Positions 2,704 to 24,447 of a DNA stretch of 32,486 bases are shown here, piece after piece. Source of the DNA: Candidatus Woesearchaeota archaeon. Lineage in GTDB: Archaea; Nanobdellota; Nanobdellia; Woesearchaeales; JACRKL01. Position 1 is the first letter of the stretch. Every line of letters begins with the position of its first letter. The position numbers were made by a program, and so were the translations under genes. The stretch covers positions 1 through 32,486 of the forward strand of contig JACRKL010000043.1 of NCBI GenBank assembly GCA_016219835.1, written 5' to 3'. A model generated the notes under the pieces. It was not told where the DNA came from. It did no database searches and saw nothing but the letters and a program-made list of their open reading frames with translations.

Positions 2704-2940
2704 ATGAAGAAACACGACAAACTCGCGGAAGAAGCACTTCGTTTGCTGAAAGGAGAGACGCTCGGGTATCAGCCAAATCCTTCTTCGTTTGAGCAGAATA
2801 GAAAACGTGCTGGCTACGGTCTTGGAGGTCTTGTTGCTCTTACTATCATTCCAGGACCACAGCCGTTGTTGGGAGCTGTGCTGTTGGGGTATTCTGCCAT
2901 CAAAGGTTATCAGGCGTATCGTGATTACCATGCAAAATGA
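2704..2940 (+). CDS. Small hydrophobic protein (78 aa)
   Basis: ATG at 2704 preceded by AGGTG; the TTG at 2680 in the ORF track is less likely. C-terminal Gly/Leu-rich hydrophobic hairpin (GLGGLVALTIIPGPQPLLGAVLLGY). Confidence 0.5.
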   Translation: MKKHDKLAEEALRLLKGETLGYQPNPSSFEQNRKRAGYGLGGLVALTIIPGPQPLLGAVLLGYSAIKGYQAYRDYHAK

Positions 2941-3544: not shown

Positions 3545-3847
3545 ATGGTAGTCTACGAAACACTCACGCTTGGAGAAGTTGTCAAGAGGGCTCTTCGCAC
3601 AACCGTGCTCATTGGCTTGACGGGGGTTGCAGCCTACTACTATGGTTCGACGCAAGGCATGCTTGCACAAAAAGAAAAGCAGGTCGATGTATTTTACAAC
3701 CATCTTGATACTTATGTTGAGCAGCAGATGCCTTCGCGCAGAGGCATCTTGTATGACTATCACGATCATCGATTCGCACCGTACCGCGTGGACATGAACT
3801 GCGCAGTACCGTTGATGTCTTTAGGTTTAGAAAACAAAGCAAAGTAA
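3545..3847 (+). CDS. Hypothetical signal-anchored protein (100 aa)
   Basis: N-proximal TM helix (TTVLIGLTGVAAYYYG) after basic residues. It starts 3 nt after the previous stop. Confidence 0.6.
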   Translation: MVVYETLTLGEVVKRALRTTVLIGLTGVAAYYYGSTQGMLAQKEKQVDVFYNHLDTYVEQQMPSRRGILYDYHDHRFAPYRVDMNCAVPLMSLGLENKAK

Positions 3848-3860
3848 GGAGGGATGAGAA

Positions 3861-5165: not shown

Positions 5166-5177
5166 GCACGGGGGAAG

Positions 5178-6782: not shown

Positions 6783-6783
6783 C

Positions 6784-10267: not shown

Positions 10268-10989
10268 TCCTGCTTTGCAATATCATAAAGAAGATGAAAA
10301 TAGCGTTTGTAGGCATCGGCAATGACCTGATCCTTAATGAGAATAGTCTTGAGGGGCGTTGCCCACAACGTGAAGAGCACTTCATCGCCGCAGATCATCG
10401 TGGAAACATGGGAATCAAACTGTTCGGGCAAATACTTTGCTTCGGTAAACGGCAGCGAGTTCAGGTAGGTAATCCTCTCTTGTGCGTTATGATTGTAGAT
10501 ATGCTTCATGCTAATCTTTTTCTGGATTCTCAGTTTGTGGAAATGCGGAATCTTTGTTTTAACAATCTCTGGCGCGATTTTAGGAATGCCATAAATCAGA
10601 ATATCTTCCTTACAGTCCAGAAAACCATACATCAAACCCATAAATGCATCAACACCATCAATTACTTTAGCCACGCTTTCCGTACCGGCAATTTTTCTGG
10701 CGATTTTAAACTCCGGGATCATTTTCTTGAGTTGGTCTTCACGTTCTTTCAGAAGATGCAACAGATGCGATGGATCGGCCGCTTCAAAATACTTTGTTTC
10801 GCCTTTCATGAAGTAGGCAACAAGACCTTTGGTAGCAAGGCGATCCAAAGCCTCATAGGCATTGGTGCGATGCACTTTAGCAGCTTTGGAAATGACTCCG
10901 GTTGCAGAAGGTCCCTGCTCCATCAATGCCATGTACACTTTAGCTTCATTTTTACTCAATCCCAGACTTTCCAGCAGGTTTTCGTCCAT
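10264..10989 (-). CDS. TrmB-family winged-helix transcriptional regulator (241 aa)
   Basis: The N-terminus MDENLLESLGLSKNEAKVYMALMEQGPSATGVISKAAKVHRTNAYEALDRLATKGLV matches the TrmB-type wHTH pattern, followed by a ~150-aa C-terminal domain. The start at 10989 is chosen over the upstream ATGs at 11031 and 11211. This is the only minus-strand gene. Confidence 0.8.
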   Translation of the reverse strand: MDENLLESLGLSKNEAKVYMALMEQGPSATGVISKAAKVHRTNAYEALDRLATKGLVAYFMKGETKYFEAADPSHLLHLLKEREDQLKKMIPEFKIARKIAGTESVAKVIDGVDAFMGLMYGFLDCKEDILIYGIPKIAPEIVKTKIPHFHKLRIQKKISMKHIYNHNAQERITYLNSLPFTEAKYLPEQFDSHVSTMICGDEVLFTLWATPLKTILIKDQVIADAYKRYFHLLYDIAKQD

Positions 10990-11010
10990 GGTGCGGGGTG
11001 GGGAGAAATA

Positions 11011-11020
11011 CTTTAAAAAG
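11011..11020 (-). promoter_or_regulatory. TATA-box-like element upstream of the TrmB-like gene
   Basis: The minus strand reads CTTTTTAAAG, centred ~26-27 nt upstream of the ATG at 10989. The geometry matches the box at 685-692. Confidence 0.35.
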
Positions 11021-11062
11021 ATTCCTTTCATTAAGAGTATATTTGTCGACGCAGGCATAAGC

Positions 11063-11070
11063 TTTATATA
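11063..11070 (+). promoter_or_regulatory. TATA box (TTTATATA) in the divergent intergenic region, upstream of CDS 11119
   Basis: Exact match to the archaeal TTTAWATA-type consensus. The predicted start site at ~11093-11097 would leave a short leader containing the GGGGTGA RBS. The core is near-palindromic, so it could also serve the minus strand. Confidence 0.4.
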
Positions 11071-11118
11071 GCGTTTGCCATTAGTGAGGGAGGAACATAG
11101 GCAGGGGTGAATGGTTGT

Positions 11119-13242
11119 ATGGGTACGATAGATCCCTATTACATCAATGAAGCTCTTCGAATGGTAAAGGGAACGGTTGATGTGAGTAATCGGTTCTTCC
11201 AATCTTTTCATGATGGGAGTGCTGAAAGTTGCACCCTGATGTTATATGGGTTTAAAGATGTTGCCAATGCAGCATTGGTTTCTATTCTTCAAGAGTCTGC
11301 TTTTCTTCATCCGATAAAGAAAGTGTATGCCGTGATGACTGACCATCTCAATACTCCCGAGAGTGTAGAGAAGCACAACGGTCGTAAGGAGTTTTCTGAA
11401 CGTCAAGTGCTGGGTTTACCTCTGAGTACCCGATTTCAAGCGCTCACTCCACAAGAGGTTCCCGGCCATATAGACGAAGTTGACTTCTTCTTTCTTACTG
11501 AATCACGCTGCACTCTTGATGAGGCTATGAACCTCGGCGGGAAAGAGTATTTTCGTGAAGCGATGATTAGAAAGAATCTGCCGATTATTGAGGATATAGC
11601 GTATCTCTTCCAAAAGCCATCTGACCTACAGGTTTGCGTGGTTACCAATCTTCCAGAGATTCTTGCTGCAAAGCTGTTGTTTGAGACTCATCTTGATCCT
11701 GCACAAATATCTGGTTTTAGCCACGCTGATAAGGTCCGCATTGATGGATACTATAATAAGCTATTAGCCTTGAAATCACATCCTTCTTTTTTGAGGAGTG
11801 AATTTTTTGCGGTGGGCAGTCATGATAATCCTTGGCCAGTACTCTCAGGACCTGCACGATTCGATTTTGGTTTAGGGTTTAATGAGCATGCTTTGGTAAT
11901 GAATGAATCTCAATGGAACCGCTTTATTCAAGATGTCCAAGCTTTTGGAGCACGGCAGTATGCAGCTCGAGGTCTTGCACAGCTCAAGAGGCCTCCTACA
12001 AGTGACGTTACTGCATCAGCGATGCGTGAAGTTCTGTTAGGCTATCTCAACAAAGATCGTTTGCTCAACCTTAGCGTATATCATGAGGGTGTCTTTCAGG
12101 AGGGACCAACGTATTTCCAGCACGGAGCACGCATGAACACGATTTTGCTTGAGCGAATGAGTCCTCATGACAGAGAACAACAGTTGCTTCGGGCCAAGAA
12201 TCTCGAGAGCCTGCTTCAAACCTTTTCTATTACTAAAAAAGGGACGATTATTGCTATGCCAGAAATGATGAATCCCGTTCTAGTTCCTAGTCAAGGAGCG
12301 CCTTCACCTACCGCTCCGAGAAAAGAGCTTCAGAGTGAGGATCTTTTAGTTGCCAGAAATACGCTCCAGCCAAATCAACTGATTATCTATGACCTTTCCG
12401 GCAATCATCTCCGAGAGATTCCATTTGGCGAGCGCTCCTATATATTCGGACTTACGTCTTTGGATGATCATCTGATTGTGATGGTGAGGGAACATCCAAA
12501 GCATGGTACACCCTACTGCCGTATGCAGGTCTTAGACTTGAAAACATTCCATGAACAAAAAACCATCGACATCCCCTCTGTCGATGCTTTTGTCGTTACA
12601 CCTCAGAAGATGTATTATACTTCCTCCGACGCTGTTCGTGGAGCAATCCAAGTATGTAACGTACCTGGCGGTCCGGATAAGAAATCATTTAGTTATGATA
12701 ACGATAACTACTTATCACTCCATGTCACTGATTCCCATCTTCTGGCTTGTTCACCAACAAAAGCTGTCGTATGGCTCCTGACAAAACCACATCTTGGAAG
12801 TATTGATTATGAAGGGGCTATCGATCGGAGTACATCCCTCAGTTTCCCTAACGGCGGTGGACTGATCTCCTTTGAGCATGATGGCAAATTAGTTGTCCAA
12901 GAGATTGGCGGTATCTCTGGCGTACGAAAAAGATTGGATGGCACATTCAGCTCTTTTTATGCTGATGAGCAAAACCGTAGTTTGTTCGTAGTAGATCCTA
13001 AAAATTACCTCTGCAGGTATACGTCACCTACTTTAGATCAATTACTGAAAACAGATGAAGTAATGATCTCTAATACTAAAGTTCCGGAGTCAGTTAGGAG
13101 CCTGATCATAACGCCTCGTTCAGTCATTGCTGCTGGTGCTTCAAACTGCTATGTGTTTGATCCATCAAACCTTGCTTATCTCGGACCAGTCGCTTTTGAA
13201 CATGCGTCGAGGGAATGCTATGCCATCATCCAAAAACTTTGA
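11119..13242 (+). CDS. LDH/MDH-like Rossmann-fold domain fused to a C-terminal beta-propeller-like region (707 aa)
   Basis: The N-terminal half follows the lactate/malate dehydrogenase pattern: VCVVTNLPEILAAKLL...ISGFSHADKVRID...AVGSHDNPWPVLS corresponds to vvtNPvD...viG..LDsaR...GEHGds.vP.wS. The dinucleotide loop is degenerate (YGFKDVA). The C-terminal ~300 aa shows repeated beta-strand blades. ATG at 11119 is preceded by GGGGTGA; GTG at 11107 is an alternative start. Confidence 0.6.
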   Translation: MGTIDPYYINEALRMVKGTVDVSNRFFQSFHDGSAESCTLMLYGFKDVANAALVSILQESAFLHPIKKVYAVMTDHLNTPESVEKHNGRKEFSERQVLGLPLSTRFQALTPQEVPGHIDEVDFFFLTESRCTLDEAMNLGGKEYFREAMIRKNLPIIEDIAYLFQKPSDLQVCVVTNLPEILAAKLLFETHLDPAQISGFSHADKVRIDGYYNKLLALKSHPSFLRSEFFAVGSHDNPWPVLSGPARFDFGLGFNEHALVMNESQWNRFIQDVQAFGARQYAARGLAQLKRPPTSDVTASAMREVLLGYLNKDRLLNLSVYHEGVFQEGPTYFQHGARMNTILLERMSPHDREQQLLRAKNLESLLQTFSITKKGTIIAMPEMMNPVLVPSQGAPSPTAPRKELQSEDLLVARNTLQPNQLIIYDLSGNHLREIPFGERSYIFGLTSLDDHLIVMVREHPKHGTPYCRMQVLDLKTFHEQKTIDIPSVDAFVVTPQKMYYTSSDAVRGAIQVCNVPGGPDKKSFSYDNDNYLSLHVTDSHLLACSPTKAVVWLLTKPHLGSIDYEGAIDRSTSLSFPNGGGLISFEHDGKLVVQEIGGISGVRKRLDGTFSSFYADEQNRSLFVVDPKNYLCRYTSPTLDQLLKTDEVMISNTKVPESVRSLIITPRSVIAAGASNCYVFDPSNLAYLGPVAFEHASRECYAIIQKL

Positions 13243-14068
13243 AGTGCTTTCCTGCTATCGCCTTGGCAGGCAGAAAAAACAGCTGTCCCATACGAATGAG
13301 GATTGCCGTTGGATAGATCGTACACATAATCTTTACATGGTTGCTGACGGGCTTGGTGGTCATGGTCATGGTGATGAAGCTAGCAGGATTACTCTGGAGT
13401 CTATTGCACACAAGCTTTCCCGGATGTATCTTGGTCTTCGCAATGGCATCTTTCAGACGGAAGACATCCCCGTGGAGATTAGTTCTGCCATGGGTTACGC
13501 TAATCACGAGATCCTCTGTCCATTGGCAACGTACTCGCCGAGCCTCGAGAATTTTGCAACGACCGTTGCGCTGTTATATTGCCATTCCTCTCAAGCATAC
13601 ATCGCCCATGTTGGTGATTCGAGAGTCTATCGTTTTCGTGATGGGTCTCTCAGTTGTCTTACGGCTGATGACCGTGAACTGAAGGATGCTCAACATCCGC
13701 TTGCAGGGTCTTATGTTACCCAATCGCTCGGGAAAGAAGCGATCGAGATACATCAGTCTCAGTTGGAGATTGCCACTGGGGACACGTTCCTCCTCACGAC
13801 TGATGGTTTGACTGATTATGCAACTGATGGAGAAATTGAACAGATTCTCCGAGAGAGTTCGTTCGCTGATGCTCCAAAACTGCTGGTGCATCTGGCAAAT
13901 TATCCTCAGGATGTCGCTGCTGCGTACGCGGATTACTGGCAGATATCCAAGAGCAGCGCAAGGAAGATGCTCGGCGGGAGGGATAACATTACCTTCATAC
14001 TCTTAAAAGCTGGGAGGGAGAACAATGGAAAGGCTGGAATTGTTAAGGTATCTGGATCAGGACTTTAA
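13220..14068 (+). CDS. PP2C-family Ser/Thr protein phosphatase (282 aa)
   Basis: Motifs NEDC...YMVADGLGGHGHGDEAS, AHVGDSRVYRF..G.L..LTADD, LLTTDGLTDY and GGRDNITFILL. The internal ATG at 13220 (GAGGGAA upstream) is preferred over 13127 or 13202. Confidence 0.85.
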   Translation: MPSSKNFEVLSCYRLGRQKKQLSHTNEDCRWIDRTHNLYMVADGLGGHGHGDEASRITLESIAHKLSRMYLGLRNGIFQTEDIPVEISSAMGYANHEILCPLATYSPSLENFATTVALLYCHSSQAYIAHVGDSRVYRFRDGSLSCLTADDRELKDAQHPLAGSYVTQSLGKEAIEIHQSQLEIATGDTFLLTTDGLTDYATDGEIEQILRESSFADAPKLLVHLANYPQDVAAAYADYWQISKSSARKMLGGRDNITFILLKAGRENNGKAGIVKVSGSGL

Positions 14069-15377
14069 GATCATGGATGTAACAAGGGGTGGTGGCTCTG
14101 CTCATATTGTTAAGGCAACGGCACTTCGTGAGTTGTCACAGTTTTCTCTTAAGAAAGGAGTTACGGTGGCACTGAAGTCTCCGAAAAATCCCAATGCAGA
14201 AGCCAGACAACGGTTTAAGATTGAGTATGAAGTGCTCAACCGATTTAAGAATCATCCCCATATTGTCACGCCATATGGGCTTACTCAATGTGGTGAACGT
14301 TATCCTATCTTGGTTATGGAATGGGTGGAACGTTCTCTTGCGAGTTATACTCGAGATCAGAATGCCCACTTCCTGACGCCAGATATTGCCGGAAAATTCC
14401 TGAAGCAGGCAGGTGCTGCACTTTCAGCTCTTCACGACCAAAATGATTCTGTCGGCTATCTCCACAGGGATATCAAACCAGACAACCTTCTTTTGCTTGG
14501 GAATAATCAAACCGTTAAATTGAGTGATTTTGGATGCGTCATGCCTTTAGGATCCGCACCTGAACGGGAGCTGCTTCCTGCGTCAAGTAGCCACGGTCTT
14601 GTTTACTATGGGGCGCCAGAAACTCTTGAGGATGATGAAACAAAGCGGGTCTACAGCAGGGAATCGGACATCTATTCACTGGCTGTATCGATGATTTACC
14701 TGCTGGCAGGAACAACTCCTTTTGAAGGGGATGCTGCCGGAACGAAACGGAAAGAACTGGTTGTGCGGAAGAGGGATAGCACCTATCTTGATGATGCTGT
14801 TGCTTTCCTGCTCTCGGAGAGAATTCCAAAGCACCAGCAGGAAGTTTTACGACAGGCGATTGATGGAACACCAGGAAACCGTCAACCTTCCGTCCAAGCA
14901 TTCCTCGACGACTTTTTTAGGGAGAAAAAGGATCCGCATGGATTGTATTTTGCAGAACGGTACAAGACGATTGAAGAAGTCCTTGGTGACCCAGCACGAA
15001 ATGTTTTTGGAGTAACGCAGGAGATTGGAGTCGATCGCATGCTAACAGCATATGAGGAAATGGTGAAGTATGCAAGTGAACATACCGTTACATCTTCGTT
15101 GGTTGGAGATGCAAAGACGAAGATCACCACACGGGCACAGCAGGATTATAGAATCCTCGAGGGTCACATTGCTGGTGCATCTGCCTTGGAGAATGCAGCT
15201 AAGAAGCATCCAGGTGGGTACACTAATTTTGGACAGGAGTTGGTGCATTACTTTAGGGTCTGGGGTGACGAATTTTCTCCATTTGCCAATCCTCAGCAGA
15301 AGAGAATCCATGCTACGGATGTTCTGGACTTTAGCGATCCAAGATACAAGGAGTTTACATTTGATCCACGGAAGTGA
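14025..15377 (+). CDS. Hanks-type Ser/Thr protein kinase with ~170-aa C-terminal extension (450 aa)
   Basis: Gly-loop TRGGGSAHIV, VALKSPK (catalytic Lys), HRDIKPDN (nt 14463-), LSDFG (nt 14526-) and YYGAPE. GGGAGGGAG RBS 4 nt upstream. It overlaps the PP2C gene by 44 nt. Confidence 0.9.
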   Translation: MERLELLRYLDQDFKIMDVTRGGGSAHIVKATALRELSQFSLKKGVTVALKSPKNPNAEARQRFKIEYEVLNRFKNHPHIVTPYGLTQCGERYPILVMEWVERSLASYTRDQNAHFLTPDIAGKFLKQAGAALSALHDQNDSVGYLHRDIKPDNLLLLGNNQTVKLSDFGCVMPLGSAPERELLPASSSHGLVYYGAPETLEDDETKRVYSRESDIYSLAVSMIYLLAGTTPFEGDAAGTKRKELVVRKRDSTYLDDAVAFLLSERIPKHQQEVLRQAIDGTPGNRQPSVQAFLDDFFREKKDPHGLYFAERYKTIEEVLGDPARNVFGVTQEIGVDRMLTAYEEMVKYASEHTVTSSLVGDAKTKITTRAQQDYRILEGHIAGASALENAAKKHPGGYTNFGQELVHYFRVWGDEFSPFANPQQKRIHATDVLDFSDPRYKEFTFDPRK

Positions 15378-15385
15378 GGCTTGTC

Positions 15386-16531
15386 ATGGTTGAACAAAGT
15401 TTGGAAGAACGGCTGAAAGAAACCTTTCAGCGATTGAAAGAGCGAGAAGCAGCGGAAGCTGCATTGGAAAAGAAATCCGTAAGATGGAAATGGTTTAAGA
15501 GAATTAGCGGCAGCATTGCAGCATTATGCCTTGCTGCGGGCATTGGCTATGGTGCCATGAACTACAAAAGCCTATCGCATGAGTTCTTTCCTCAGCCGAC
15601 GCCGACATCGACTGCAACGGTAACGCCAACAGCTACTCCAAAAAAAACACCAACATTGATGGGTACCATCTTAACAAGTTATCGTTCGAATCTAAATCTC
15701 CTTAGGGGATACAACTACGAAGAAATAAATCGGATTGTTTATGAGTCTATTGGTAATCTTCCTCCTCTTAACCAAAAACAGATAACTGAGGTTGTACAAA
15801 CGATTCTTTCTCATGAAATGCCCTCCATTAAAACTAATGAGATTACGACATATAACGATCTTTTCTTTACACGTTTTATTGGTACTTCATACTATGCAGG
15901 GTACAATCATTTTATTGTTTCAAATAGAGAACCAATAGCGGTATTTGGAAGGAGTCTGCTCGGAAAAGATAATGACCCTCTTATGATTAATATCACTGGA
16001 GATATAGGTTCCTTAGGGCATTCTGCAGAATATACCCATTTTATTGTTAAAGGGAATGTGTCTCTTTGTGGAGAAGATTCCGAAAGGTGTACTTTCAGAG
16101 TAGATGGAAATACTGAGGGTTATTTAGGTCATAATTCCAATGATAGCATTTATTTCATAAATGGAGTAGTAGGAACAGAGTTAGGAGACAGATCGAGTTT
16201 TTGTAAATTTACCGTGATGGGGAATGTTGGAGACTCTTGTGGGGATTGGTCAAATAACGCCGAGGTTATGGTCTCTGGAAATGTTGGAGCCCATTTAGGT
16301 ATTAATGCACGCGATGGTACGTTTACCATAAAGGGCTCAACTGGTGATTATATTGGTCATGAAGCACGTCGCTCAACCTTCATTATATTTGGAACTATTG
16401 GACAATTATTCTATCGTGATGGTTTTCCCTCAGATTGCACATTCATTTGTTATCTTCCTGAAACGTACCAAGCTCTCATGAACCATTATAACGTCAATAA
16501 CAACACCATCAAGTTATCGACTCAAAAATAG
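15386..16531 (+). CDS. N-terminally anchored surface protein: PT linker plus GXGXG-type beta-helix repeats (381 aa)
   Basis: Cytoplasmic helix LEERLKETFQRLKEREAAEAA, basic stop-transfer, TM (ISGSIAALCLAAGIGYGA) and PT linker (PQPTPTSTATVTPTATPKKTPT). These are followed by 7-8 coils of ~19 aa with the pattern h.h.G..G..hG (nt ~15983-16405), as in the GXGXG domain of FwdC / glutamate synthase. The ATG at 15386 aligns with the paralogue's start. Confidence 0.65.
   Translation: MVEQSLEERLKETFQRLKEREAAEAALEKKSVRWKWFKRISGSIAALCLAAGIGYGAMNYKSLSHEFFPQPTPTSTATVTPTATPKKTPTLMGTILTSYRSNLNLLRGYNYEEINRIVYESIGNLPPLNQKQITEVVQTILSHEMPSIKTNEITTYNDLFFTRFIGTSYYAGYNHFIVSNREPIAVFGRSLLGKDNDPLMINITGDIGSLGHSAEYTHFIVKGNVSLCGEDSERCTFRVDGNTEGYLGHNSNDSIYFINGVVGTELGDRSSFCKFTVMGNVGDSCGDWSNNAEVMVSGNVGAHLGINARDGTFTIKGSTGDYIGHEARRSTFIIFGTIGQLFYRDGFPSDCTFICYLPETYQALMNHYNVNNNTIKLSTQK
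15408..15462 (+). repeat. 55-nt near-identical segment, copy 1 (5' end of CDS 15386)
   Basis: 53 of 55 nt are identical to 16566-16620, although the rest of the two genes has diverged. It contains a perfect 7-bp hairpin ctgaaag-aaac-ctttcag (15413-15430). Confidence 0.85.
15590..15655 (+). repeat. Pro/Thr-rich linker-coding low-complexity region
   Basis: Encodes PQPTPTSTATVTPTATPKKTPT directly after the TM helix. Confidence 0.8.
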
Positions 16532-16543
16532 GCTTCGAAAAAA

Positions 16544-18106
16544 ATGACCGACAAACCCCTCGAACAACGGCTGGAAGAAACCTTTCAGCGATTGAAAGAG
16601 CAAGAAGCAGCGGAAGCTGCGAAGGGAACTGAACAGAGTACAGTTGGAGCACCCTATGAAACCAAAGCATCAAATCCTATGGGTCATTCATGGTTCAGAA
16701 AACTAGGGATAGGGATTACCGTTTTAGGGTTGGCTACACTTTGCTATGTGGGGATGCTAAAACCCACCCAATCTACCCTTACCTCAAACGTCTCTACTCC
16801 TGCCCTAGTACAGAAACTGCCTGATGGTGTTACTGCACTCAACTCAGCGTTCTACCAGATTGATTCTGTGATTACTCTTCCGTTAGGTAAACATTTTGTG
16901 GATAAAGATATTTGTGTTGCATCGACCGGGAAGCTTACACTCCTCCCCGGATCTGAATTGTATTTCGGCAAGGATGCAGGAATCTCGTGCAAAGGAAACT
17001 TGGAAGCTATCGGTGATCAACAGCGTCCCATCTTGTTTACTTCGTTAGGCGATTCATGGAAGAATATCGTCCTCACTTCCAACCAACCCTCTAAACTCTC
17101 CTATTGTATCTTCCGGCAGGGCCATGGTCGTGATCATGATGCTTACTTAGACCGACAACCCATGGCTTTCAGTGGTCAAATGAGAGGCGGAGCAATTTTA
17201 ATAGCAAACTCTAAAGCAGGTATTGACCATTGCACATTTGAGAATAACCAAGCGTATGAAGGCGGTGCTATTTTTCTTGATGATGCCAATGCAACAATCT
17301 CTTACTGTAATTTTTTTGATAATTCGGGTAGTACAAGAGGCGGAGGCATTGCAACCATGAACTCAAAGATCAGCATTAACCAGAACGTCTTCTCTAGGAA
17401 TAATAGCAGTTTTGGAGGCGGAGCATGGTTTTTTCGATCGGAAATCATGTTAATCGAAAACCTCTTTGAGGCTAATAACGCTGATGAGGGTGGCGGGTTA
17501 AAGTGTGAAGCAACAGGTGGTGGTATTTGGGATAATACTTTTAGAAGCAATCGGGCAACTCAGCGTGGTGCAGGATTAGACCTTCGTGGAAATTCTCCTG
17601 AAGGTCATAGCTTCCTTATGGAAGGAAATAAGATCCTCTCCAACGTTTGTACGGGGGAGTATTCTCGTGGTGGGGGTGTACATGCTGAGTACTTAGTAAT
17701 GCCGTTAATGAGTTGGAATCATGTTGAGGGAAATAAAGCTGAGTGTGGGGCAGGATTTTCGTTTATGGATAGTTCAGATATTTATCTTTCCCAGAATACA
17801 ATGGAGAACAATACTGCTTCTAACACTGGCGGAGGGATTTGGATGCAGCGCGTTAAGAAGATGTATATGCAAAAAAATCTCATAGGTTATAATACCGCAG
17901 GAAATGGGGTTGGAGGGATATTCTTTGCTGACATGAATTTATCTGGATTGTATACCTATGTCTGCAAAACCACCGCAACAACGGTAGACTACGATTCAAA
18001 GACTAGCGTTGGCATTAACTTAGTAGATCTTGATAAGAACACTATCATAACTGAATGGAAGAAGATGAATCATAATGTTGTTATTGGCAACACTCCTCCT
18101 CCCTAA
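16544..18106 (+). CDS. N-terminally anchored surface protein with right-handed parallel beta-helix (PbH1/Pmp-like) repeats (520 aa)
   Basis: Same N-terminal motif (LEQRLEETFQRLKEQEAAEAA) plus a TM helix. More than 10 repeats of the GGAI/GGGI...F..N type follow (e.g. GGAILIANSKAGIDHCTFENN, GGAIFLDDANATISYCNFFDN, GGGIATMNSKISINQNVFSRN). Confidence 0.8.
   Translation: MTDKPLEQRLEETFQRLKEQEAAEAAKGTEQSTVGAPYETKASNPMGHSWFRKLGIGITVLGLATLCYVGMLKPTQSTLTSNVSTPALVQKLPDGVTALNSAFYQIDSVITLPLGKHFVDKDICVASTGKLTLLPGSELYFGKDAGISCKGNLEAIGDQQRPILFTSLGDSWKNIVLTSNQPSKLSYCIFRQGHGRDHDAYLDRQPMAFSGQMRGGAILIANSKAGIDHCTFENNQAYEGGAIFLDDANATISYCNFFDNSGSTRGGGIATMNSKISINQNVFSRNNSSFGGGAWFFRSEIMLIENLFEANNADEGGGLKCEATGGGIWDNTFRSNRATQRGAGLDLRGNSPEGHSFLMEGNKILSNVCTGEYSRGGGVHAEYLVMPLMSWNHVEGNKAECGAGFSFMDSSDIYLSQNTMENNTASNTGGGIWMQRVKKMYMQKNLIGYNTAGNGVGGIFFADMNLSGLYTYVCKTTATTVDYDSKTSVGINLVDLDKNTIITEWKKMNHNVVIGNTPPP
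16566..16620 (+). repeat. 55-nt near-identical segment, copy 2 (5' end of CDS 16544)
   Basis: See copy 1. The hairpin is retained with one G-U wobble (ctggaag-aaac-ctttcag, 16571-16588). Confidence 0.85.
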
Positions 18107-18122
18107 TATGGTGATCTAAAAA

Positions 18123-18947
18123 ATGACTCTTGAATCCCAACTCAAACATGCTTGGATCCGCATGATCTACCATGACGGCATCAGTGATCTTATATGTGAA
18201 TCGCTGTTTGCAATGCCGGGCTGGGATGATGTCTTTGCGAAGCTGGAAGATCCCTCGCTTCTTTCATTATGGTCTTCTTATATGTCCGCATGGCTTGGCA
18301 ATCCATCAGATCGACAATCGCTCCAAGAGGATCCCGCCTATGCACCTGCTGTTTCCCTCCGGAATCAATATCGCCCTTATCTTCTCTCCATCAAAGAACT
18401 CTTGGACAGCCATGGTGAAGATCATGGCTACTTGCGTGCTTCTTTCTTGAAAGGGCTTGCAGATGCAAACACCACATCAGCGGATGATCCGCTTCCGATA
18501 TTGGTGAGGGAATATCTCGATCTCTATCAGCATACCGAGATGGTATGGTCAGCTCACTCTCCCTCAACAAATAGTTCTGTTGGTCTCTCGTTTAGGGAAT
18601 TTTACCGGGAGAAGAGAGAACGAATGAAGAGCATGCCGTGGGATTTCACCGTCCAGACGCCGTATGGGATCTTCCAACGTCAAGTGAATGATTCCTCGCT
18701 TCAGGTATCCCTCTCAGGAAAGCCCGTTGTTGAAGCCGTTGGTTACCTGATGGCATCCAGTTCTCCACATGATCTGTCGATTCCATTCTTGTATGATCTT
18801 GCTCATGGAAACGCGTTTTACGCGTCTTGTGAAGGCAGCAGCATCGACCGTTCCGTGCCGCTCTTCAACTTCCTGCTCGGCAGGTCAGAGAAAAATGGCA
18901 GGATGGTTTGTGCGATTGAATTGATAACAGGTGAGCACCATGGGTGA
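18123..18947 (+). CDS. Hypothetical protein; C-terminal region resembles the two downstream beta-grasp-like proteins (274 aa)
   Basis: GGTGAT RBS upstream. The C-terminus ...LFNFLLGRSEKNGRMVCAIELITGEHHG parallels ...THFLKIGTSDPYLLCEIRIY and ...PFLLAKHF..KPYRLCEMRMM of the next two products. Confidence 0.6.
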   Translation: MTLESQLKHAWIRMIYHDGISDLICESLFAMPGWDDVFAKLEDPSLLSLWSSYMSAWLGNPSDRQSLQEDPAYAPAVSLRNQYRPYLLSIKELLDSHGEDHGYLRASFLKGLADANTTSADDPLPILVREYLDLYQHTEMVWSAHSPSTNSSVGLSFREFYREKRERMKSMPWDFTVQTPYGIFQRQVNDSSLQVSLSGKPVVEAVGYLMASSSPHDLSIPFLYDLAHGNAFYASCEGSSIDRSVPLFNFLLGRSEKNGRMVCAIELITGEHHG

Positions 18948-19326
18948 ACAAGACTTTTTGCTCTTGCCAGTACAGATTGAGCTGTATTACCAGACTCAGA
19001 TCTATGGCGCTTATTTCCGTCCGGATGAGGAGCAGAAAAAACTGCTGAGAGATATGACCTTGAATGAAGCTATCGCATTCAGCTGGCATCATGCATCATG
19101 CGCCAGAGCAATTCCTGAGCTCAAGGTATTAGTTTCCTATCCTATCGAAGCTCGTGTCTTCCATCATACCTATCGGAAAATGTTCGATGGTTCCGGCACG
19201 TGTCTTGTTGATGAGCTTGCCAGAAGATTTGTTGATCCAACTCATTTCCTGAAGATAGGGACGTCTGATCCTTATCTTCTTTGCGAGATTCGCATCTATC
19301 ATGAAAACAGGAGGGATGTACCATGA
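18940..19326 (+). CDS. Beta-grasp-like protein, paralogue of the 19323 product, no di-glycine (128 aa)
   Basis: ATGGGTGA start/stop overlap with the upstream gene. It aligns with the next product over the whole domain: PVQIELYYQ/PLVIRLYPE, MTLNEAIAFSW/ITIADAVRFAM, LKVLVSY/IKLVIGS, PYLLCEIRIY/PYRLCEMRMM. Confidence 0.55.
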   Translation: MGEQDFLLLPVQIELYYQTQIYGAYFRPDEEQKKLLRDMTLNEAIAFSWHHASCARAIPELKVLVSYPIEARVFHHTYRKMFDGSGTCLVDELARRFVDPTHFLKIGTSDPYLLCEIRIYHENRRDVP

Positions 19327-19763
19327 GTGAAGAAACCATAGATTTAATGACGCAGCCGCTGGTGATACGATTGTATCCGGAAAGTAATCTTACGGGCATT
19401 GAATCAAAGTGCCAAGATGATCGGAGAAAAGGGCTAATAACCATTGCAGACGCTGTTCGATTTGCGATGGAGAATTACCAGAAGACTAGTTATTCGGCAA
19501 CGAATTATAATTCCTTGAAGAAACTCGTAGACAAGCCCAGCGGTATTAAATTAGTTATTGGTTCATCGACCTATGGCTTTAAGGATCTCCATGGTACGAC
19601 TATTTCGACTCCGCCTTTTCTGTTAGCGAAGCATTTCTCTCCTCAGGTCGATCGAGACTTAAAGCCCTATCGTCTTTGTGAAATGAGAATGATGGATGTA
19701 GGAGGAGATGTATTAGGAGGGTTGTATGGATCAGACTTATCTGACCGAATTGGCTCGAAGTAA
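19323..19763 (+). CDS. Candidate ubiquitin-like modifier precursor (146 aa)
   Basis: ATGA overlap and AGGAGGG RBS. The strand-helix-strand pattern is compatible with a beta-grasp fold. The terminal strand YRLCEMRMMDV is followed by G127-G128 (nt 19701-19706) and an 18-aa tail containing a second LGG. It lies directly upstream of the E2-like/JAB/E1 genes. Confidence 0.5.
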   Translation: MSEETIDLMTQPLVIRLYPESNLTGIESKCQDDRRKGLITIADAVRFAMENYQKTSYSATNYNSLKKLVDKPSGIKLVIGSSTYGFKDLHGTTISTPPFLLAKHFSPQVDRDLKPYRLCEMRMMDVGGDVLGGLYGSDLSDRIGSK

Positions 19764-20916
19764 TCTGGTGCTTATCGCACTGGATCGAATCTTTGAAGTA
19801 AGCATGAAGGGATCTCATCATCCCTTTTGGTGCAACTTCTCAGGTCAATACTGTGGATTGAGGGAGTCGGAGATGATCCGCTACTTTGAGAACCAGCTGA
19901 TGACTCCTTTGCTTTTCAAGGATTCTTCCGTTCCCCAGATAATCGAAACGCTTGGTCAGCTTAACGGACGCATAGCTAACGCACAAAAAAAGATGGAACG
20001 GAATGCTCTTGAAGCATTTATTGAGAATTTCCTGAATGACTGGAGCATTGGTGGAAGGCTCAAAAAGCAACGGAACACTGATCAGCAACCGATGGAGATT
20101 CCTTCTCTTGATGCATACTCATTCCACGAAGGAGATGGCACAGATTATGTGCTCCAGCGGTTGCTTCCTTCTCCGGGAGCGCTTATAGCAAGTAAGGATG
20201 TTTTCCATTTGGTCCCTTATGATGGCGGAAATACTCGTGTGAATATGGGCGATCAGTCTTTCTCTCTACGATACCATACCTCGTTAGCAGAACTCGAGAA
20301 ATCCTACACCCGTGAGCTTTCAAAACATTGCTCACATAAACAAACCATCTTGATAAATCAGTACCAGTCCATTGCACAATCTCTTGAACGGATGATTACG
20401 GAGATTGAAGCATCTAGTGTTCCTGCAGAAAATGCGAGGGGCGAGGTTGGCTGGTTCAAGGAAGACGGCAATTACTATCTGTACATTGTAAAGGATAATT
20501 TCACACTGGAAGAGGAGGGGATCGTTTGCAGATTCCCTTCTTGCAAGTTAGGGGTTCGGTTGATCTTGACTGGAAAAACGATCAGTTATGATTCTAATTC
20601 AAGTACTGGGGCAACACGTATATTCTTTTCTCGCAGTATTAAAGATGGCAAAGAAGTCGGTGATATGCAGAGTCTCAAGAATGGAGTATATAAACATCCA
20701 GCAACTACTACTAACGGGAGCGTTCCTTACCCCTACTTATGCGTAAGCGGCACCAATCTACCTAAACCCTCCGAAACTCTTTCATCTGCTGCATGCCTAC
20801 GAACAGTACTCTCAAAACTCCATCTGGTCATTGAGCATGGGTATCATGGAGGAACAGTGCACGTATATCGTCATCTCAGTGACTCTTCATTTGAACCGTT
20901 CAAGGTGAGGCCATGA
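19726..20916 (+). CDS. Hypothetical protein; possible E2 (UBC-fold)-like C-terminal domain (396 aa)
   Basis: GGAGGG RBS 5 nt upstream. In residues ~215-375, a helix, four strand-like segments, then YKHP-x13-LC(339)VSG and a following helix (LSSAACLRTVLSKLHLVIE) resemble the E2 HPN...Cys active-site layout. Its position between the Ubl and JAB/E1 genes supports the call. The CDS is confident; the function is tentative. Confidence 0.4.
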   Translation: MDQTYLTELARSNLVLIALDRIFEVSMKGSHHPFWCNFSGQYCGLRESEMIRYFENQLMTPLLFKDSSVPQIIETLGQLNGRIANAQKKMERNALEAFIENFLNDWSIGGRLKKQRNTDQQPMEIPSLDAYSFHEGDGTDYVLQRLLPSPGALIASKDVFHLVPYDGGNTRVNMGDQSFSLRYHTSLAELEKSYTRELSKHCSHKQTILINQYQSIAQSLERMITEIEASSVPAENARGEVGWFKEDGNYYLYIVKDNFTLEEEGIVCRFPSCKLGVRLILTGKTISYDSNSSTGATRIFFSRSIKDGKEVGDMQSLKNGVYKHPATTTNGSVPYPYLCVSGTNLPKPSETLSSAACLRTVLSKLHLVIEHGYHGGTVHVYRHLSDSSFEPFKVRP

Positions 20917-22943
20917 GGACTCTCCATAATCTGAGACAGCCGATCCATGGTGAAGAAATCAACGTAGCAACTACCCCTATGGAGAAACTAATGACGATTG
21001 CTGAGATCATGGACTTTCTGGAGTTCCGCGTTATTTCCTTGTCTTATCCTGGGCCTTATGAACGCGTCATTCAGGATTTTTATATCCCGTATCAGAAAGT
21101 GACCGGGGCATCTGCTGATCACGATGATCTTGATGTCATTGAGGATTATTCCCTTCTGCGCAACAACGGGTTTCGTATCCTTGGCATCGCACACGGTCAT
21201 GGTAAATTTCAACCATTCCACTCTGCAAAAGATGACGAGGCAATCGAAAAGGTATTATTACGTTCGTGGGATCACCAAAAACAGCTGAACCACATTTATT
21301 TTAGTCTCGCCAATGGACTTGAAGAGATGGATGAGCAACATCTCTCGATTACCGGGTTTAATGAAATGGACTTTACCCTAATGATGGATTGGTCGCGGCA
21401 GGCTACAAATAAGACATTCTGTACAGAGGAAGTAACTAAGATCAAGGAAAATCTACGGGGAAGGACATTGAAGAGTCTTCGTGGTGAAGTCTCTAGTCTG
21501 GTTGTCAACGGTACTGCAAGGGATATCTATGCGATGAAACGCATTCGCGAGGATCATTTCATCTTCTTTCCAGATGACAAAGATATGTATCGTGAGATCC
21601 AGAACCAATCTCGTGCTCAATTTGTTCGTGAGGGCAATAGTGTCCGATACAGCCTTGAGACTGCAGTTGTGCAGAGGGATGATATTCAGCTGGATGGATT
21701 TCAAGTAGATCTTCTCGTTGAAGAATTACGGGAGAAGGTGCAGGTCTGTGGCAATCGCGTTCCGGAGGCATTACGGAAGTCATATGCACTATATGGTCGA
21801 GAACAGGCGTATGCTCCAGATAGAAGTCTTGAGCGTTGGGGGTATCATATCCCGGTTATTCAGAAATCGGCGTTCGAGCAGCCGATTATTGAACTGCCAG
21901 TCATTGCACCGCCAAGAACCGATGGACTGGAAGATCACCTTGTTGCACCAGAGTTTCGTTCATTAGACGATGGAACTCTCCATCAACCGACTACTGATGG
22001 AGATAATATCCTGGTTTCAGAACCCCATGAACAGAACGTAGACGTTTCATCTCTCAAACCGCTAGCGACCGATGAGAATCTTCCTGCCATTGCTGTTCCG
22101 TTAGAAGTGGCTGAATGCAAAGCACCAGTGGTAGTGCATATTCCTATTTATGCTCCGCCTGGTTCCGAAATCCCTATCGAAGTTCCTATCCGGGTAGTAT
22201 CACCAACTGCTCATGCAGAGGTATTGCATCCTGCAACTCCTGCGAATACAACTCTAGATGGTAATCTCCATACGGATCTGGAATTATTCAGTCAATACAC
22301 TGAAGAGATTCATGGGAAACCGACCATTGAAGCGATCATCGGCAAACCAAACATGGCATCTCCTGAACCAGATCTTTTGCCAGAGAATTCTGTTGAGCTT
22401 TCACCTCTAGTTGTTGCTCCATCCCCTTTTGTTCCTGCACATTCTATTGCTCAAGCTACCACTGCTCCGGAAGCAGCTCCTGTTCCAAGAGTCTATGCTA
22501 TGATCCAATGCGATCCAGAAGATCGGCATGCGGATGTTGTTCGTTGTTATGAGGAGTTATTCATTCAACAGGATGACTATGTTTTACGTTCAAGTTTACT
22601 TCATAACCTTCAATCAATGTATGGCGAAGTACAAAGAGATTATCCTTCGATGAGAGTTCTGTTAGATCCGTTAGAGGGGCTCATTGAGCGTGTCTCTTCC
22701 AAACTCTCCCAAGCCAAGACATTTCAGCATTCCATCAAAGATCGTGCATCAGAGAAAGAGCGACTCCATGGCTTTGGGAAATTAACTTCATCTGACTTTC
22801 AGGAGCTGTTGCGCCTTCGTAATGGATTCTGCCAGTTAGGTCACTATGATCGAGCAGCAGATTTGCAGAAACTAGTGGTGGGAATTCAGAACCATGAAGG
22901 TATTTACCCCTTAGTGCATGCCGGAGCGGATAAGCATGGTTGA
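20913..22943 (+). CDS. JAB/MPN+ (JAMM) metalloprotease domain protein with long Pro-rich and helical C-terminal extension (676 aa)
   Basis: E37, then ~57 aa, then H94-G-H96-x7-S104-x2-D107 (ILGIAHGHGKFQPFHSAKDD, nt 21192-21233), an exact HxHx7Sx2D JAMM signature. ATGA overlap with the upstream gene. Confidence 0.85.
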   Translation: MRTLHNLRQPIHGEEINVATTPMEKLMTIAEIMDFLEFRVISLSYPGPYERVIQDFYIPYQKVTGASADHDDLDVIEDYSLLRNNGFRILGIAHGHGKFQPFHSAKDDEAIEKVLLRSWDHQKQLNHIYFSLANGLEEMDEQHLSITGFNEMDFTLMMDWSRQATNKTFCTEEVTKIKENLRGRTLKSLRGEVSSLVVNGTARDIYAMKRIREDHFIFFPDDKDMYREIQNQSRAQFVREGNSVRYSLETAVVQRDDIQLDGFQVDLLVEELREKVQVCGNRVPEALRKSYALYGREQAYAPDRSLERWGYHIPVIQKSAFEQPIIELPVIAPPRTDGLEDHLVAPEFRSLDDGTLHQPTTDGDNILVSEPHEQNVDVSSLKPLATDENLPAIAVPLEVAECKAPVVVHIPIYAPPGSEIPIEVPIRVVSPTAHAEVLHPATPANTTLDGNLHTDLELFSQYTEEIHGKPTIEAIIGKPNMASPEPDLLPENSVELSPLVVAPSPFVPAHSIAQATTAPEAAPVPRVYAMIQCDPEDRHADVVRCYEELFIQQDDYVLRSSLLHNLQSMYGEVQRDYPSMRVLLDPLEGLIERVSSKLSQAKTFQHSIKDRASEKERLHGFGKLTSSDFQELLRLRNGFCQLGHYDRAADLQKLVVGIQNHEGIYPLVHAGADKHG

Positions 22944-24447
22944 TTTCAGTCGGCAGGAAGTCATCTGGGGGAAAGCAGGTCAGGAAGTTCTTGCATCCAC
23001 CAATCTTGTCGTTCTTGGGGCAGAGAATCTCGGCAGGGAAATCGTGAAGTCTGCTGCAATTCTCGGTATCGGGGAAGTTGGCAAAGGGAAAATTCATGTC
23101 GCTTCCAATTATCGTGCTACTGCTGCTGATATGTTCCTAGATCTCCCATTTGAAGAGGGCAGTTTAGTCGTCCGAAGCCTTCCTTCGATGATCTCCCGTC
23201 TGAATCCTACTACGTCAATCATTCCGTTTCATGGTGATCCAACAGTTCATTACCTTTCCCATCTAGGCACCATTGATGGTATCATTTCCACCGTTAATGA
23301 TCCTCGTATACAGGAGTTGGTATTGGAGTATGCTTCATCCAAGAAAATTCCTCTCTTCCTGCTTTCAACTGATCTTTGTAAAGGGACGTTGTCTCCCGGG
23401 ATTGACCGTATAGCTGGTTATGATGGTAGTATCCAAGGAACTATCGTAAGCAATATCTTCGCTGGCGTAACTCTGGAAGAATGCCGGAAACAATTATTTC
23501 TGAAGAACCAACGTAAATTTAAGGACACTCGTGTGATGCTGAGGGATGGAACCATTCAAGAATATTTTAAGGTTATTGGTGATGATATCCGTCTTGACCG
23601 TGCGTTCACGTATTCCATCAATGGTGATCGCATGGGTCAAGGGTCGGAATGGATGCTTGGTGAGGGCGACCTTTCAGGGAAGAAGATTATGATCTTAGGT
23701 GGCGGTGCAATCGGCAATTATGTTGCTGATATCCTTGCTCGGTTTTTCCCTTCTCGCTTGGACGTTGTTGATTTTGATGTTTATGAAGAACACAATCTTA
23801 ACCGACAGCCGCTTGCGTATGGTCAGATTGGACGAAAAAAAAGCGAGGTTCTTGCTGAACGAATCCGAACGATCAGCCGGGGGAAAACTGCATCTCAGGC
23901 ATTCTTTGCCAAGATTGAAGAATCCAGCTCCAGCAAGGAAGCATATCGGTCTATTGGCCGTTCATGGCTCGAGTTACATCCTTATGACCTGCTGGTAGGA
24001 TGCTTTGACCGATTTGACGTCCGGAAGTTTGTTCATGAATGTGCTCTCACTTTACAGACGCCCTATGCGGATTTAGGTTCTTCTCCCCAAGGTGGCAGGG
24101 TTAATCTCTATGTTCCGGGAAAGACTCGGTGCCTTGATTGCAGTTACGGCATTCATCAGGTCTATGCAAATGATGTGATTCTGAGGACCAAACATGAAGC
24201 CGCCAGGGCTCGTGTTGTTGCAGGTAACCCTTCAGGGATAGATCATCTTCACTGCCGTGATGTAGAAGGAAGTGTGAACATGAGTAACCAGATCGTTGCC
24301 GGACTCTTTGCCGGTGAAATGAGAAAAGTATTCTCCTCCGATTATGGGAATATCTGCGACTTCTTGAAATACCGAGGGGAAAGTGGCATGAAGATTCAGT
24401 GGGAACCAGATACTAAACCTTGTTCTTGTTCGGGGAGGAAATCATGA
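22936..24447 (+). CDS. ThiF/MoeB/E1-like Ubl-activating enzyme with tandem inactive plus active adenylation domains (503 aa)
   Basis: The C-terminal half carries MILGGGAIGNYVADIL (nt 23698-), DVVDFDVYEEHNLNRQ, then CLDC and later CSC (Zn-site-like). The N-terminal half has the same fold pattern (FSRQEVIWGKAGQEVL..NLVVLGAENLG...) but degenerate nucleotide-binding motifs. ATGGTTGA overlap with the JAB gene; ATG at 22918 is an alternative start. Confidence 0.85.
   Translation: MVDFSRQEVIWGKAGQEVLASTNLVVLGAENLGREIVKSAAILGIGEVGKGKIHVASNYRATAADMFLDLPFEEGSLVVRSLPSMISRLNPTTSIIPFHGDPTVHYLSHLGTIDGIISTVNDPRIQELVLEYASSKKIPLFLLSTDLCKGTLSPGIDRIAGYDGSIQGTIVSNIFAGVTLEECRKQLFLKNQRKFKDTRVMLRDGTIQEYFKVIGDDIRLDRAFTYSINGDRMGQGSEWMLGEGDLSGKKIMILGGGAIGNYVADILARFFPSRLDVVDFDVYEEHNLNRQPLAYGQIGRKKSEVLAERIRTISRGKTASQAFFAKIEESSSSKEAYRSIGRSWLELHPYDLLVGCFDRFDVRKFVHECALTLQTPYADLGSSPQGGRVNLYVPGKTRCLDCSYGIHQVYANDVILRTKHEAARARVVAGNPSGIDHLHCRDVEGSVNMSNQIVAGLFAGEMRKVFSSDYGNICDFLKYRGESGMKIQWEPDTKPCSCSGRKS

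Follow-up and report, generated by a model that had tools for sequence, protein, structure and literature searches.

What do three small, consecutive genes, here called p1, p2 and p3, encode when they lie just before the genes for a candidate E2-like protein, a JAB peptidase and an E1 enzyme? The question concerns a 32,486-base stretch of DNA (hereafter the window), which is the whole contig of a metagenome-assembled genome (MAG) labelled Candidatus Woesearchaeota at NCBI and in which p3 carries the locus tag HZB02_02395; the archaeal assignment rests on this label and on TrmB-type neighbours. Outside the eukaryotes, complete ubiquitin-type cascades are found in a few archaea and in the bacterial Bil, Bub and CBASS (cyclic oligonucleotide-based antiphage signaling system) defence systems, and to our knowledge the tag has a recognisable ubiquitin fold in all of them but CBASS. 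An earlier reading of the window from its letters alone (the original prediction) had taken p1, p2 and p3 for three tandem paralogous, beta-grasp-like modules that share a terminal strand, with GG plus a tail on the last one only. Here, we judge it reasonably likely that the region is the modifier end of a Bil-like conjugation cassette (ubiquitin-like protein (Ubl), E2, JAB, E1) on a DPANN-type archaeal contig, with p3 as the modifier precursor.

Since the genes of the family to which p3 belongs sit just before an E1, a candidate E2-like protein and a JAB, the last of the three copies, p3, is probably a ubiquitin-style protein tag. Its compact domain, disordered tail, conserved glycine and synteny with E1 and JAB support a modifier-like nature in the functional sense. 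The genes belong to a single long plus-strand string from ~11.1 kb to 27 kb, which runs through a 711-amino-acid (aa) protein, a PP2C-like open reading frame (ORF), a Ser/Thr-kinase-like ORF, two paralogous helix-transmembrane-beta-helix proteins, p1, p2, p3, a 396-aa protein, a 676-aa JAB protein, a 509-aa ThiF-type E1 and an 846-aa coiled-coil protein. The features that matter most are as follows.

18123 to 18947, plus strand: p1, an ORF of 274 aa
18940 to 19326, plus strand: p2, 128 aa from the ATG at 18940 (131 aa from the GTG at 18931), a short-form family member
19323 to 19763, plus strand: p3, 146 aa, the candidate modifier, a long-form family member
19726 to 20916, plus strand: 396-aa protein in the position of BilB (E2), with orthologues in loci L001 and L002
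20913 to 22943, plus strand: 676-aa JAB/JAMM metallopeptidase, from its Prok-JAB match, motif and orthologues
22918 to 24447, plus strand: 509-aa E1 (Pfam ThiF, 1.3e-33)

The three ORFs lie where the original prediction had placed them, and the C-termini that it quoted are correct. Consecutive genes overlap, with 8 nt shared by p1 and p2 (ATGGGTGA), 4 nt by p2 and p3 (ATGA) and 38 nt by p3 and the gene after it, and through these start/stop overlaps the genes are translationally coupled.

A small protein family and its enzyme neighbours

Sequence comparison confirmed that p2 and p3 are paralogous over their full length, as had been proposed. The two align across the whole domain at 26-27% identity (BLASTP, E=2e-5), and their Smith-Waterman score of 61 stands against 26.1 +/- 4.1 in 1000 shuffles, none of which reached it (0/1000). 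A family hidden Markov model (HMM) matches both at 1e-37 to 1e-41. With p3 as the sole query, a word-indexed homologue search of 5.8 billion clustered proteins returned only p3 itself, while a p2+p3 profile, run with HMMER exhaustively against 1.84 billion representative proteins, gave 14 matches at E<=1e-3. Besides p2 and p3 themselves, these comprised eleven proteins 116-164 aa long and a 677-aa repeat protein (P0010), which we judged to be a false positive and excluded. One further member, P0015, was added by a word search with the family alignment, making 12 real relatives in total. The family is tiny and all of its members are metagenomic. Conserved in its alignment are a hairpin (PVVIELYP..I), a helix (T..EAVDYVMENY) and the last strand, Y-x-L-[CS]-E-I-R-V-Y. 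No Pfam family was found in any of 14 members, and no NCBIfam or PADLOC family among the window proteins other than the E1; p3 has a weak match to a PHROG of unknown function (E=0.0049). Genome-contig scans with the E1 and with the E2-position alignment gave no matches, nor did a metagenome scan and a viral scan with the family alignment; a scan with the member P0014 recovered L002, plus L003 and L004, which are chance matches.

DNA was recovered for ten loci, in which the family gene always lies 5' of a ~400-aa protein with two conserved cysteines. In L001 (a 29.5-kb contig), the order is a TrmB regulator (minus strand), a 538-aa protein resembling lactate and malate dehydrogenases (LDH/MDH-like), the family members P0015 and P0012, a 417-aa protein, a 560-aa JAB protein and a 535-aa E1. 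In L002 (a 153-kb contig), an AAA ATPase and eight paralogous small proteins precede P0014 and a 413-aa protein, and these are followed by a 653-aa protein whose JAMM motif is intact, an E1 of 535 aa and a coiled-coil protein of 1096 aa. On the shorter contigs (L005-L013), the family gene is followed by the ~400-aa protein and, where the contig is longer, by the JAB and then a partial ORF. The order modifier, ~400-aa Cys protein, JAB, E1 is thus found in L001 and L002, and in L009, L012 and L013 up to the contig ends, and the Cys protein is also next after the modifier in L005, L006 and L010. By BLAST, four orthologous genes are common to the window, L001 and L002.

The E1 has two unlike halves. 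Its C-terminal half is an active ThiF-type domain (residues 250-475) with GxGxxG (GGGAIGNY), NLNRQ and CxxC...CxC motifs and an invariant crossover-loop Cys446, which lies in a ~40-residue insertion between the CxxC and SVNM motifs. The N-terminal half lacks the active motifs; its residues 10-210 match the inactive adenylation domains of the eukaryotic proteins UBA1, UBA7 and APPBP1. A three-sequence E1 profile matched the inactive as well as the active adenylation regions of UBA1, UBA6, UBA7 and APPBP1, and with it UBA1, UBA6 and UBA7 were the best PDB matches (1.8e-15 and weaker), ahead of MccB, UBA5, Cap2 and BubCD (the last a weak match, 1.8e-6), and no BilD chain was among the 60 best. 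In the JAB protein, the HxHx7Sx2D motif is intact (HGHGKFQPFHSAKD) and is preceded by a conserved Glu in the window, L001 and L002; its N-terminal ~290 residues are conserved. The 396-aa protein has orthologues in L001 and L002 at E-values of 8e-36 to 2e-51; Cys273 (FRFxxCxxG) and Cys339 are kept in every locus that covers them, and HPA stands about 15 residues before Cys339 (HPA-x11-C) in 5/6 loci. From its position and this HPN-like HPA..Cys motif, we infer that the 396-aa protein is an E2-like carrier.

The same E1 could belong to a biosynthetic or sulfur-carrier system, with ThiS/MoaD-like thiocarboxylate chemistry or MccB-like peptide modification. As a single sequence, the E1 finds MccB as its best PDB match, its active domain scores best against ThiF/MoeB-type NCBIfam models, and pairs of a JAB and a Ubl reportedly occur in siderophore and cysteine biosynthesis. 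However, the ThiF/MoeB scores (38-68 bits) fall far under the curated cut-offs (152-275), no ThiG, ThiH, MoaE, cysteine-synthase or rhodanese partner occurs in any locus, the pairing of an inactive with an active E1 domain is eukaryote- or Bil-like, the E1 profile matches UBA1, UBA6 and UBA7 best, and sulfur-carrier pathways offer no role for the conserved ~400-aa Cys protein at the E2 position. We therefore regard this explanation as very improbable; membership in the ThiS/MoaD group was rejected on the partner enzymes and the scores, and an MccB-type system was rejected alongside it, given the lack of biosynthetic partners and the eukaryote/Bil-like E1.

The glycine-bearing tail and the partner copies

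We compared the C-terminal end in 14 members (10 long and 4 short forms), counting tail positions from the end of the last strand. All ten long forms have a glycine at position 8 (seven members), 7 (two) or 9 (one); the next residue is G, A or C, and 2-25 variable residues complete the chain. The p3 residue that corresponds to this conserved glycine is G132 (LGG; codon 19716-19718), at tail position 8, and not G127 or G128. The structure model of p3 has a folded domain from residue 1 to ~131, while residues 132-146 are disordered, with a predicted local distance difference test (pLDDT) value below 50 from residue 132 onwards. A flexible tail that ends in, or could be processed to, a glycine is therefore present in p3, and it is absent from p2. 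Comparison with the relatives points to G132/G133, rather than G128, as the cleavage site. The statement that only the last copy carries GG plus a tail was true as read, but the conserved glycine is G132, and p1 also ends in a glycine. Two further features follow from the tail register.

19716 to 19721, plus strand: codons of G132-G133 (gga ggg), the predicted processing/activation site, from the tail register in 14 members
19722 to 19763, plus strand: predicted removable tail of p3, L134-K146, from pLDDT and the tail register

The short forms (p2, P0004, P0014 and the gene upstream of P0011 in L009, called L009up) each end precisely at position 8, the last residues being P, R, N and R in that order; p2 ends in EIRIY-HENRRDVP and a stop (19303-19326), with Pro at this position and no glycine. 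The P0004 stop is internal to its contig, so this short end is real. In a crude identity tree the short forms are scattered rather than forming one clade, and truncation has therefore probably arisen more than once. An interpretation of p2 as a decaying pseudogene was rejected: its ORF has full length and preserves the family core, L009 independently gained a comparable short form, and the stop of p2 is in the same position as in the other short forms. As an observation in its own right, P0004 (JGI sample 3300042731) is followed by a 159-aa gene and then by another overlapping gene; P0004 and the 159-aa gene could be a further short-then-long pair.

The original prediction had also noticed that the GG codons double as the ribosome-binding site (RBS) of the downstream gene, which holds: GGAGG at 19716-19720 (tta GGA GGg = L131-G132-G133) lies 5 nt before the ATG at 19726. 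The last 12 codons of the p3 tail coincide, in a different reading frame, with the beginning of the next gene, and the N-terminus of the 396-aa protein, M-x-x-T-Y-L, is kept in other loci. The further suggestion that part of the tail is shaped by this overlap is right about the overlap itself, but the glycine is also kept in relatives whose downstream gene does not overlap (L001, L002). The glycine is thus not just a by-product of the RBS, and that explanation was ruled out. The p2/p3 junction AGGAGGGATGTA (19308-19325) resembles the p3/next-gene junction AGGAGGGTTGTA (19705-19728) at 11/12 bases, a likeness score reached by 34/2000 shuffles, and a similar AGGAGGAGATGTA occurs once more within the p3 tail. 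Because the two junctions are alike, the RBS-bearing junction looks as if it had been duplicated together with the gene. The p2 frame translates GGAGG as Arg-Arg, and the +1 frame would give KTGGMYHE and a stop.

The tail also bears on whether p2 and p3 are modifiers at all. They might be substrates, regulatory subunits or adaptors, the E1 activating something else, such as the C-terminus of another protein of the operon in the manner of Cap2 with CD-NTases. E1-type enzymes can indeed activate C-termini outside the beta-grasp fold, as Cap2 does; the E1 here, run as a single sequence, matches MccB best in the PDB, some family members lack a glycine at the expected terminus, and the fold matches no known structure. 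Against this, the family gene is the only small protein that always adjoins the enzymes and it occupies the position of BilA, a glycine at a fixed distance from the last strand, with a variable, disordered tail behind it, is the signature of a modifier that undergoes processing, not of a target, and we saw no second conserved protein with a tail of this kind. We consider such a role for p2 and p3 improbable.

The gene directly 5' of the tailed copy is a relative of the family in 8/10 loci. Two of these upstream copies, p2 and L009up, are ordinary members (L009up at E=1e-34 and 52% identical to its neighbour P0011), whereas the upstream copy in L001, P0015, is itself long-tailed, and the 538-aa LDH/MDH-like protein before that pair ends in an upstream-type domain (E=8e-6). 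In L005, L006, L007/8, L010 and L013 a divergent upstream-type domain lies 5' of the tailed gene; it stops 0-5 residues past the last strand, except in L008up (10 residues, no glycine), and the L006 and L013 versions have a coiled coil fused to their N-terminus. The two groups are linked by an HMM of the upstream type, which matches P0003, an ordinary member, at 4.7e-6. The upstream gene in the remaining loci, L002 and L011/12, is an unrelated protein with a helix and a 'GGNY' beta domain. Pair identities range widely (p2/p3 26%, L009up/P0011 52%, P0015/P0012 67%), and tandem duplication has occurred independently at least three times. The arrangement of a tailed copy beside a relative without glycine plus tail is therefore recurrent and more general than could be seen from the window, and the non-processed copies are a recurrent part of the system.

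For p1, the relationship is weaker. It had been linked to p2 and p3 by its terminal strand, and this strand does no better than chance, an HMM of the last strand ranking p1 207th of 279 ORFs at -1.9 bits. Pairwise comparisons of p1 with p2 and p3 were within the range of shuffles, whether p1 was used whole or split at residue 150, and with the whole-family HMM, filters off and E<=100, p1 was not among the best ~50 of 506 ORFs. A different part of the protein aligned to profile A11, which combines the family with the divergent upstream-type relatives from other loci: p1 residues 167-213 (MPWDFTVQTP..SLSGKPVVEAVGYLM) align to its first hairpin and helix with an hhalign local score of 23.7 (P=0.002-0.007). 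This score was reached by 0/200 shuffles (mean 11.0, sd 2.1, max 19.0) and by 0/266 real 110-aa segments (max 21.5). The proposal of three paralogous modules thus stands for p2 and p3 and is plausible for p1 through the hairpin and helix, not through the strand originally cited. On this alignment, it is probable but unproven that the following part of p1 is a very divergent upstream-type module.

18615 to 18947, plus strand: putative C-terminal domain of p1, residues ~165-274, from hhalign against profile A11

The p1 C-terminus, ITGEHHG and a stop, ends in its glycine 5 residues past the putative last strand. Residues 1 to ~165 form a separate helical region with no relatives. Among 5.8 billion proteins the only homologue of p1 was itself (P0016), p1 has no Pfam, NCBIfam, PHROG or PADLOC family, and a single-sequence AlphaFold2 (AF2) model was unusable (pLDDT 45.5). 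The PP2C- and kinase-like ORFs and the next three genes, p1 included, are missing from the otherwise syntenic L001, which places p1 in an insertion specific to the window.

Taken together with the enzymes, these tails suggest the following course. The JAB peptidase would trim the disordered tail of p3 after G132 (possibly G133), and the active ThiF domain of the E1 would then adenylate the exposed C-terminus and load it on the crossover-loop Cys446. From there the modifier might be handed to one of the conserved cysteines in the 396-aa protein, with Cys339, which follows the HPN-like HPA, as the most likely one, and be transferred to a target lysine. p2 would be a paralogue with the length of processed p3, ending in Pro instead of glycine; the C-terminal domain of p1 is probably related as well, but has diverged even further and is nearly tail-less. 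Most likely, these copies would be non-processed partners of the machinery rather than second modifiers, serving either as (i) a dedicated acceptor, as Atg5 is for Atg12, or (ii) a docking or decoy module that brings its attached domain to the E1, E2 or JAB.

The fold of p3 and the weight of the evidence

The p3 structure was modelled with AF2 and the 14-sequence alignment, giving a pLDDT of 87.2 and a predicted template modelling (pTM) score of 0.79. Strands are predicted at residues 13-19, 26-30, 75-79, 82-87, 106-109 and 115-125 and helices at 33-37, 41-50 and 56-70. Foldseek found no match to this model at E<0.7 among 350,542 PDB chains or at E<0.14 among the viral structures of BFVD. Within the PDB list, GABARAP (0.31-0.35) and PI3K-alpha (0.33) had the highest TM-scores; both contain a beta-grasp, although scores of this size are typical of unrelated folds. 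The model is thus a confident alpha/beta prediction, but we could not assign it to the beta-grasp fold, in which a mixed sheet of strand order 2-1-5-3-4 grips a single helix.

The original prediction had drawn a parallel with ISG15 and poly-Ubl proteins, and the corresponding explanation is that all three products are beta-grasp Ubl domains of such an array, split into separate genes, with p3 as the canonical Ubl and p1 and p2 as non-conjugatable copies. The order of elements in p3 (hairpin, helices, hairpin, long last strand, Gly tail) is compatible with an embellished beta-grasp, the two best TM-scores point to beta-grasp proteins, the Ubls of Bil and Bub systems are structurally diverse with one to three beta-grasp domains, and the E1/JAB operon context fits. 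Against it stand the empty Foldseek searches, although very many ubiquitin-fold chains were included in the PDB set, TM-scores at the level of unrelated folds, and an hhalign probability of 0.3% for the family against Ub, NEDD8, SUMO, SAMP1, SAMP2, ThiS and MoaD. No Ubl Pfam family was matched by any of the 14 members at E<=10, and a PDB profile search, NCBIfam, PADLOC and PHROGs likewise gave none. Six strands and three helices in ~125 residues also speak against a beta-grasp, as does a p1 terminal strand that is not above chance. The beta-grasp assignment thus finds no support in structure prediction, Foldseek or hhalign, and we hold this explanation to be doubtful, if still a serious one.

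A bolder proposal goes the other way: the modifier would be a new, non-beta-grasp fold used as the tag of a eukaryote-like E1/E2-like/JAB cascade in DPANN archaea, in an obligatory pair with a tail-less paralogous module, and the short forms would be dedicated acceptors or length-matched regulators of the E1. We put this forward tentatively and think it rather unlikely in its full form.

Several points weigh against p3 as the modifier precursor of a Bil-like cassette. (i) Neither sequence searches nor Foldseek reveal a resemblance of the modifier to any Ubl. (ii) The 396-aa protein has no match in Pfam, PADLOC, NCBIfam or the PDB, and against UBC E2s the hhalign probability was 0.1-0.2%. (iii) The Prok-JAB match of the JAB protein (E=7e-4) falls under the Pfam cut-off, as do the Prok-JAB matches in L009 and L012. 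(iv) The sole family gene of L002, P0014, is a short form that ends in Asn and has no position-8 glycine, which means that either a terminal glycine is not required or the short forms do another job. (v) The relationship of p1 is weak: an upstream-type HMMER search placed it at E=0.095-0.21 in a set of 506 ORFs, below a spurious ORF of 40 aa. (vi) Processing, activation, thioester transfer, the identity of the E2, the role of p2 and p1 and the targets are what we infer from these data.

Known systems and the surrounding genes

BilABCD encodes, in order, the Ubl BilA, the E2 BilB (CEHH), the JAB BilC and the E1 BilD (PMC10557695). Type II BilA has one conserved glycine followed by up to nine variable residues, the JAB cuts after this glycine, and BilA superposes on ubiquitin at 1.7 A. 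The cassette described here shares this gene order in the window, L001 and L002 (PMC10557695), as well as an E1 with inactive and active adenylation domains, an intact JAMM motif, a glycine with a variable tail on the modifier, and the lack of an E3. It differs in that the modifier, the E2-position protein and the JAB (above cut-off) are unrecognised by PADLOC, Pfam and NCBIfam, that the modifier model does not superpose on ubiquitin, that a ~400-aa HPA..C protein replaces CEHH and no BilB/CEHH-type homologue was found, and that the JAB is 560-676 aa long with a long C-terminal extension. The host, too, is an archaeal MAG with TrmB-type regulators nearby rather than a Rhizobiaceae defence island, and a separate, recurrent gene encodes the relative without glycine plus tail. 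Judged by sequence, then, the cassette is not a member of Bil, with neither the modifier nor the E2-position protein recognised.

Two or three serial related modules with an activatable glycine on the last alone are also seen in ISG15, Type I BilA, and the multi-domain BilA and BubA proteins. In contrast to these, the modules here are encoded by individual genes with translational coupling, fusions of the upstream module to other parts occur (a coiled coil in L006 and L013, the LDH/MDH-like protein in L001, the helical region in p1), and a beta-grasp fold is not supported. In the Atg12-Atg5 pair, a Gly-terminated modifier acts with a dedicated partner of related, non-conjugatable modules; the likeness of p3 with p2 and p1 to this pair is a functional analogy alone, and that p3 is conjugated to p2 or p1 is no more than a hypothesis.

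Type II CBASS resembles the cassette in applying E1/E2/JAB chemistry to a protein that is not a beta-grasp Ubl, and the active domain of the E1 matches Cap2 models at 1e-8 to 1e-13, but these matches are confined to the generic nucleotide-binding part of ThiF (residues ~250-340). Membership in Type II CBASS was rejected, as there is no CD-NTase or nucleotidyltransferase and the E1 and the E2-position protein are separate genes. Bub systems have the DUF6527 serine protease BubE, and their E1 and E2 work via oxyesters, with no catalytic Cys; membership was rejected because no window protein matches DUF6527 and both the E1 crossover Cys and the two Cys of the E2-position protein are kept.

We found no description in the literature of such a system in DPANN or Woesearchaeota. 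What is new here is a Bil gene order with a eukaryote-like two-domain E1 on a Woesearchaeota-labelled contig, together with tag and E2-position families that are absent from Pfam, NCBIfam and PADLOC and a confident tag model that matches no known structure. If the proposed chemistry is true, the range of proteins usable as tags by E1/E2 machinery would be wider, an archaeal lineage would join the Bil-like systems, and a separately encoded relative without glycine plus tail beside the tag would be a new recurring feature.

Several neighbouring genes recur together with the cassette, and the following concern its two flanks.

10264 to 11211, minus strand: TrmB-type regulator in the window
11107 to 13242, plus strand: 711-aa protein, similar by BLASTP to the 538-aa protein of L001
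24420 to 26960, plus strand: 846-aa coiled-coil protein, with a start that overlaps the E1 stop
2308 to 3924 of L001: LDH/MDH-like homologue, from a weak Ldh_1_N match
2453 to 4504 of L006: LDH/MDH-like homologue, from a weak Ldh_1_N match

Beyond the four orthologous genes, the window and L001 also share the LDH/MDH-like protein and a 50%-identical TrmB regulator. Residues 119-310 of the 711-aa protein are similar to the 538-aa LDH/MDH-like protein of L001 (BLASTP, E=2e-5), and the weak Ldh_1_N matches are in its L001 and L006 homologues. The window, L001 and L006 each have an LDH/MDH-like Rossmann protein and a TrmB-type regulator alongside the cassette, and the 711-aa protein is possibly an associated component. 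On the other flank, the 1096-aa coiled-coil protein of L002 lies at the same place as the 846-aa protein of the window, with no detectable similarity between the two, and whether the 846-aa protein belongs to the system is uncertain.

The two proteins 5' of p1 (15374-16531 and 16544-18106) have a common N-terminal helix (LEERLKETFQRLKEREAAEAA / LEQRLEETFQRLKEQEAAEAA), followed in both by a transmembrane segment and beta-helix or PMP-like repeats. In L002, the eight paralogues 5' of the modifier (4185-9987) likewise have a common N-terminal helix (MTDQKKINELEQKL..DKEYGDLGAYKEYG), with a GGNY beta domain, and L011 has one helix-plus-GGNY-type protein (3614-4018). These helix-transmembrane-beta-helix and GGNY proteins may be clients or targets of the system. 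The PP2C-type phosphatase-like and Ser/Thr kinase-like ORFs lie at 13127-15377, their translations having been judged by eye. Further 5' in the window are a Mrr-type restriction endonuclease domain (2789-3541) and two AAA/P-loop ATPases (5178-6782 and 6784-8301), and the gene string of L002 is also headed by an AAA ATPase.

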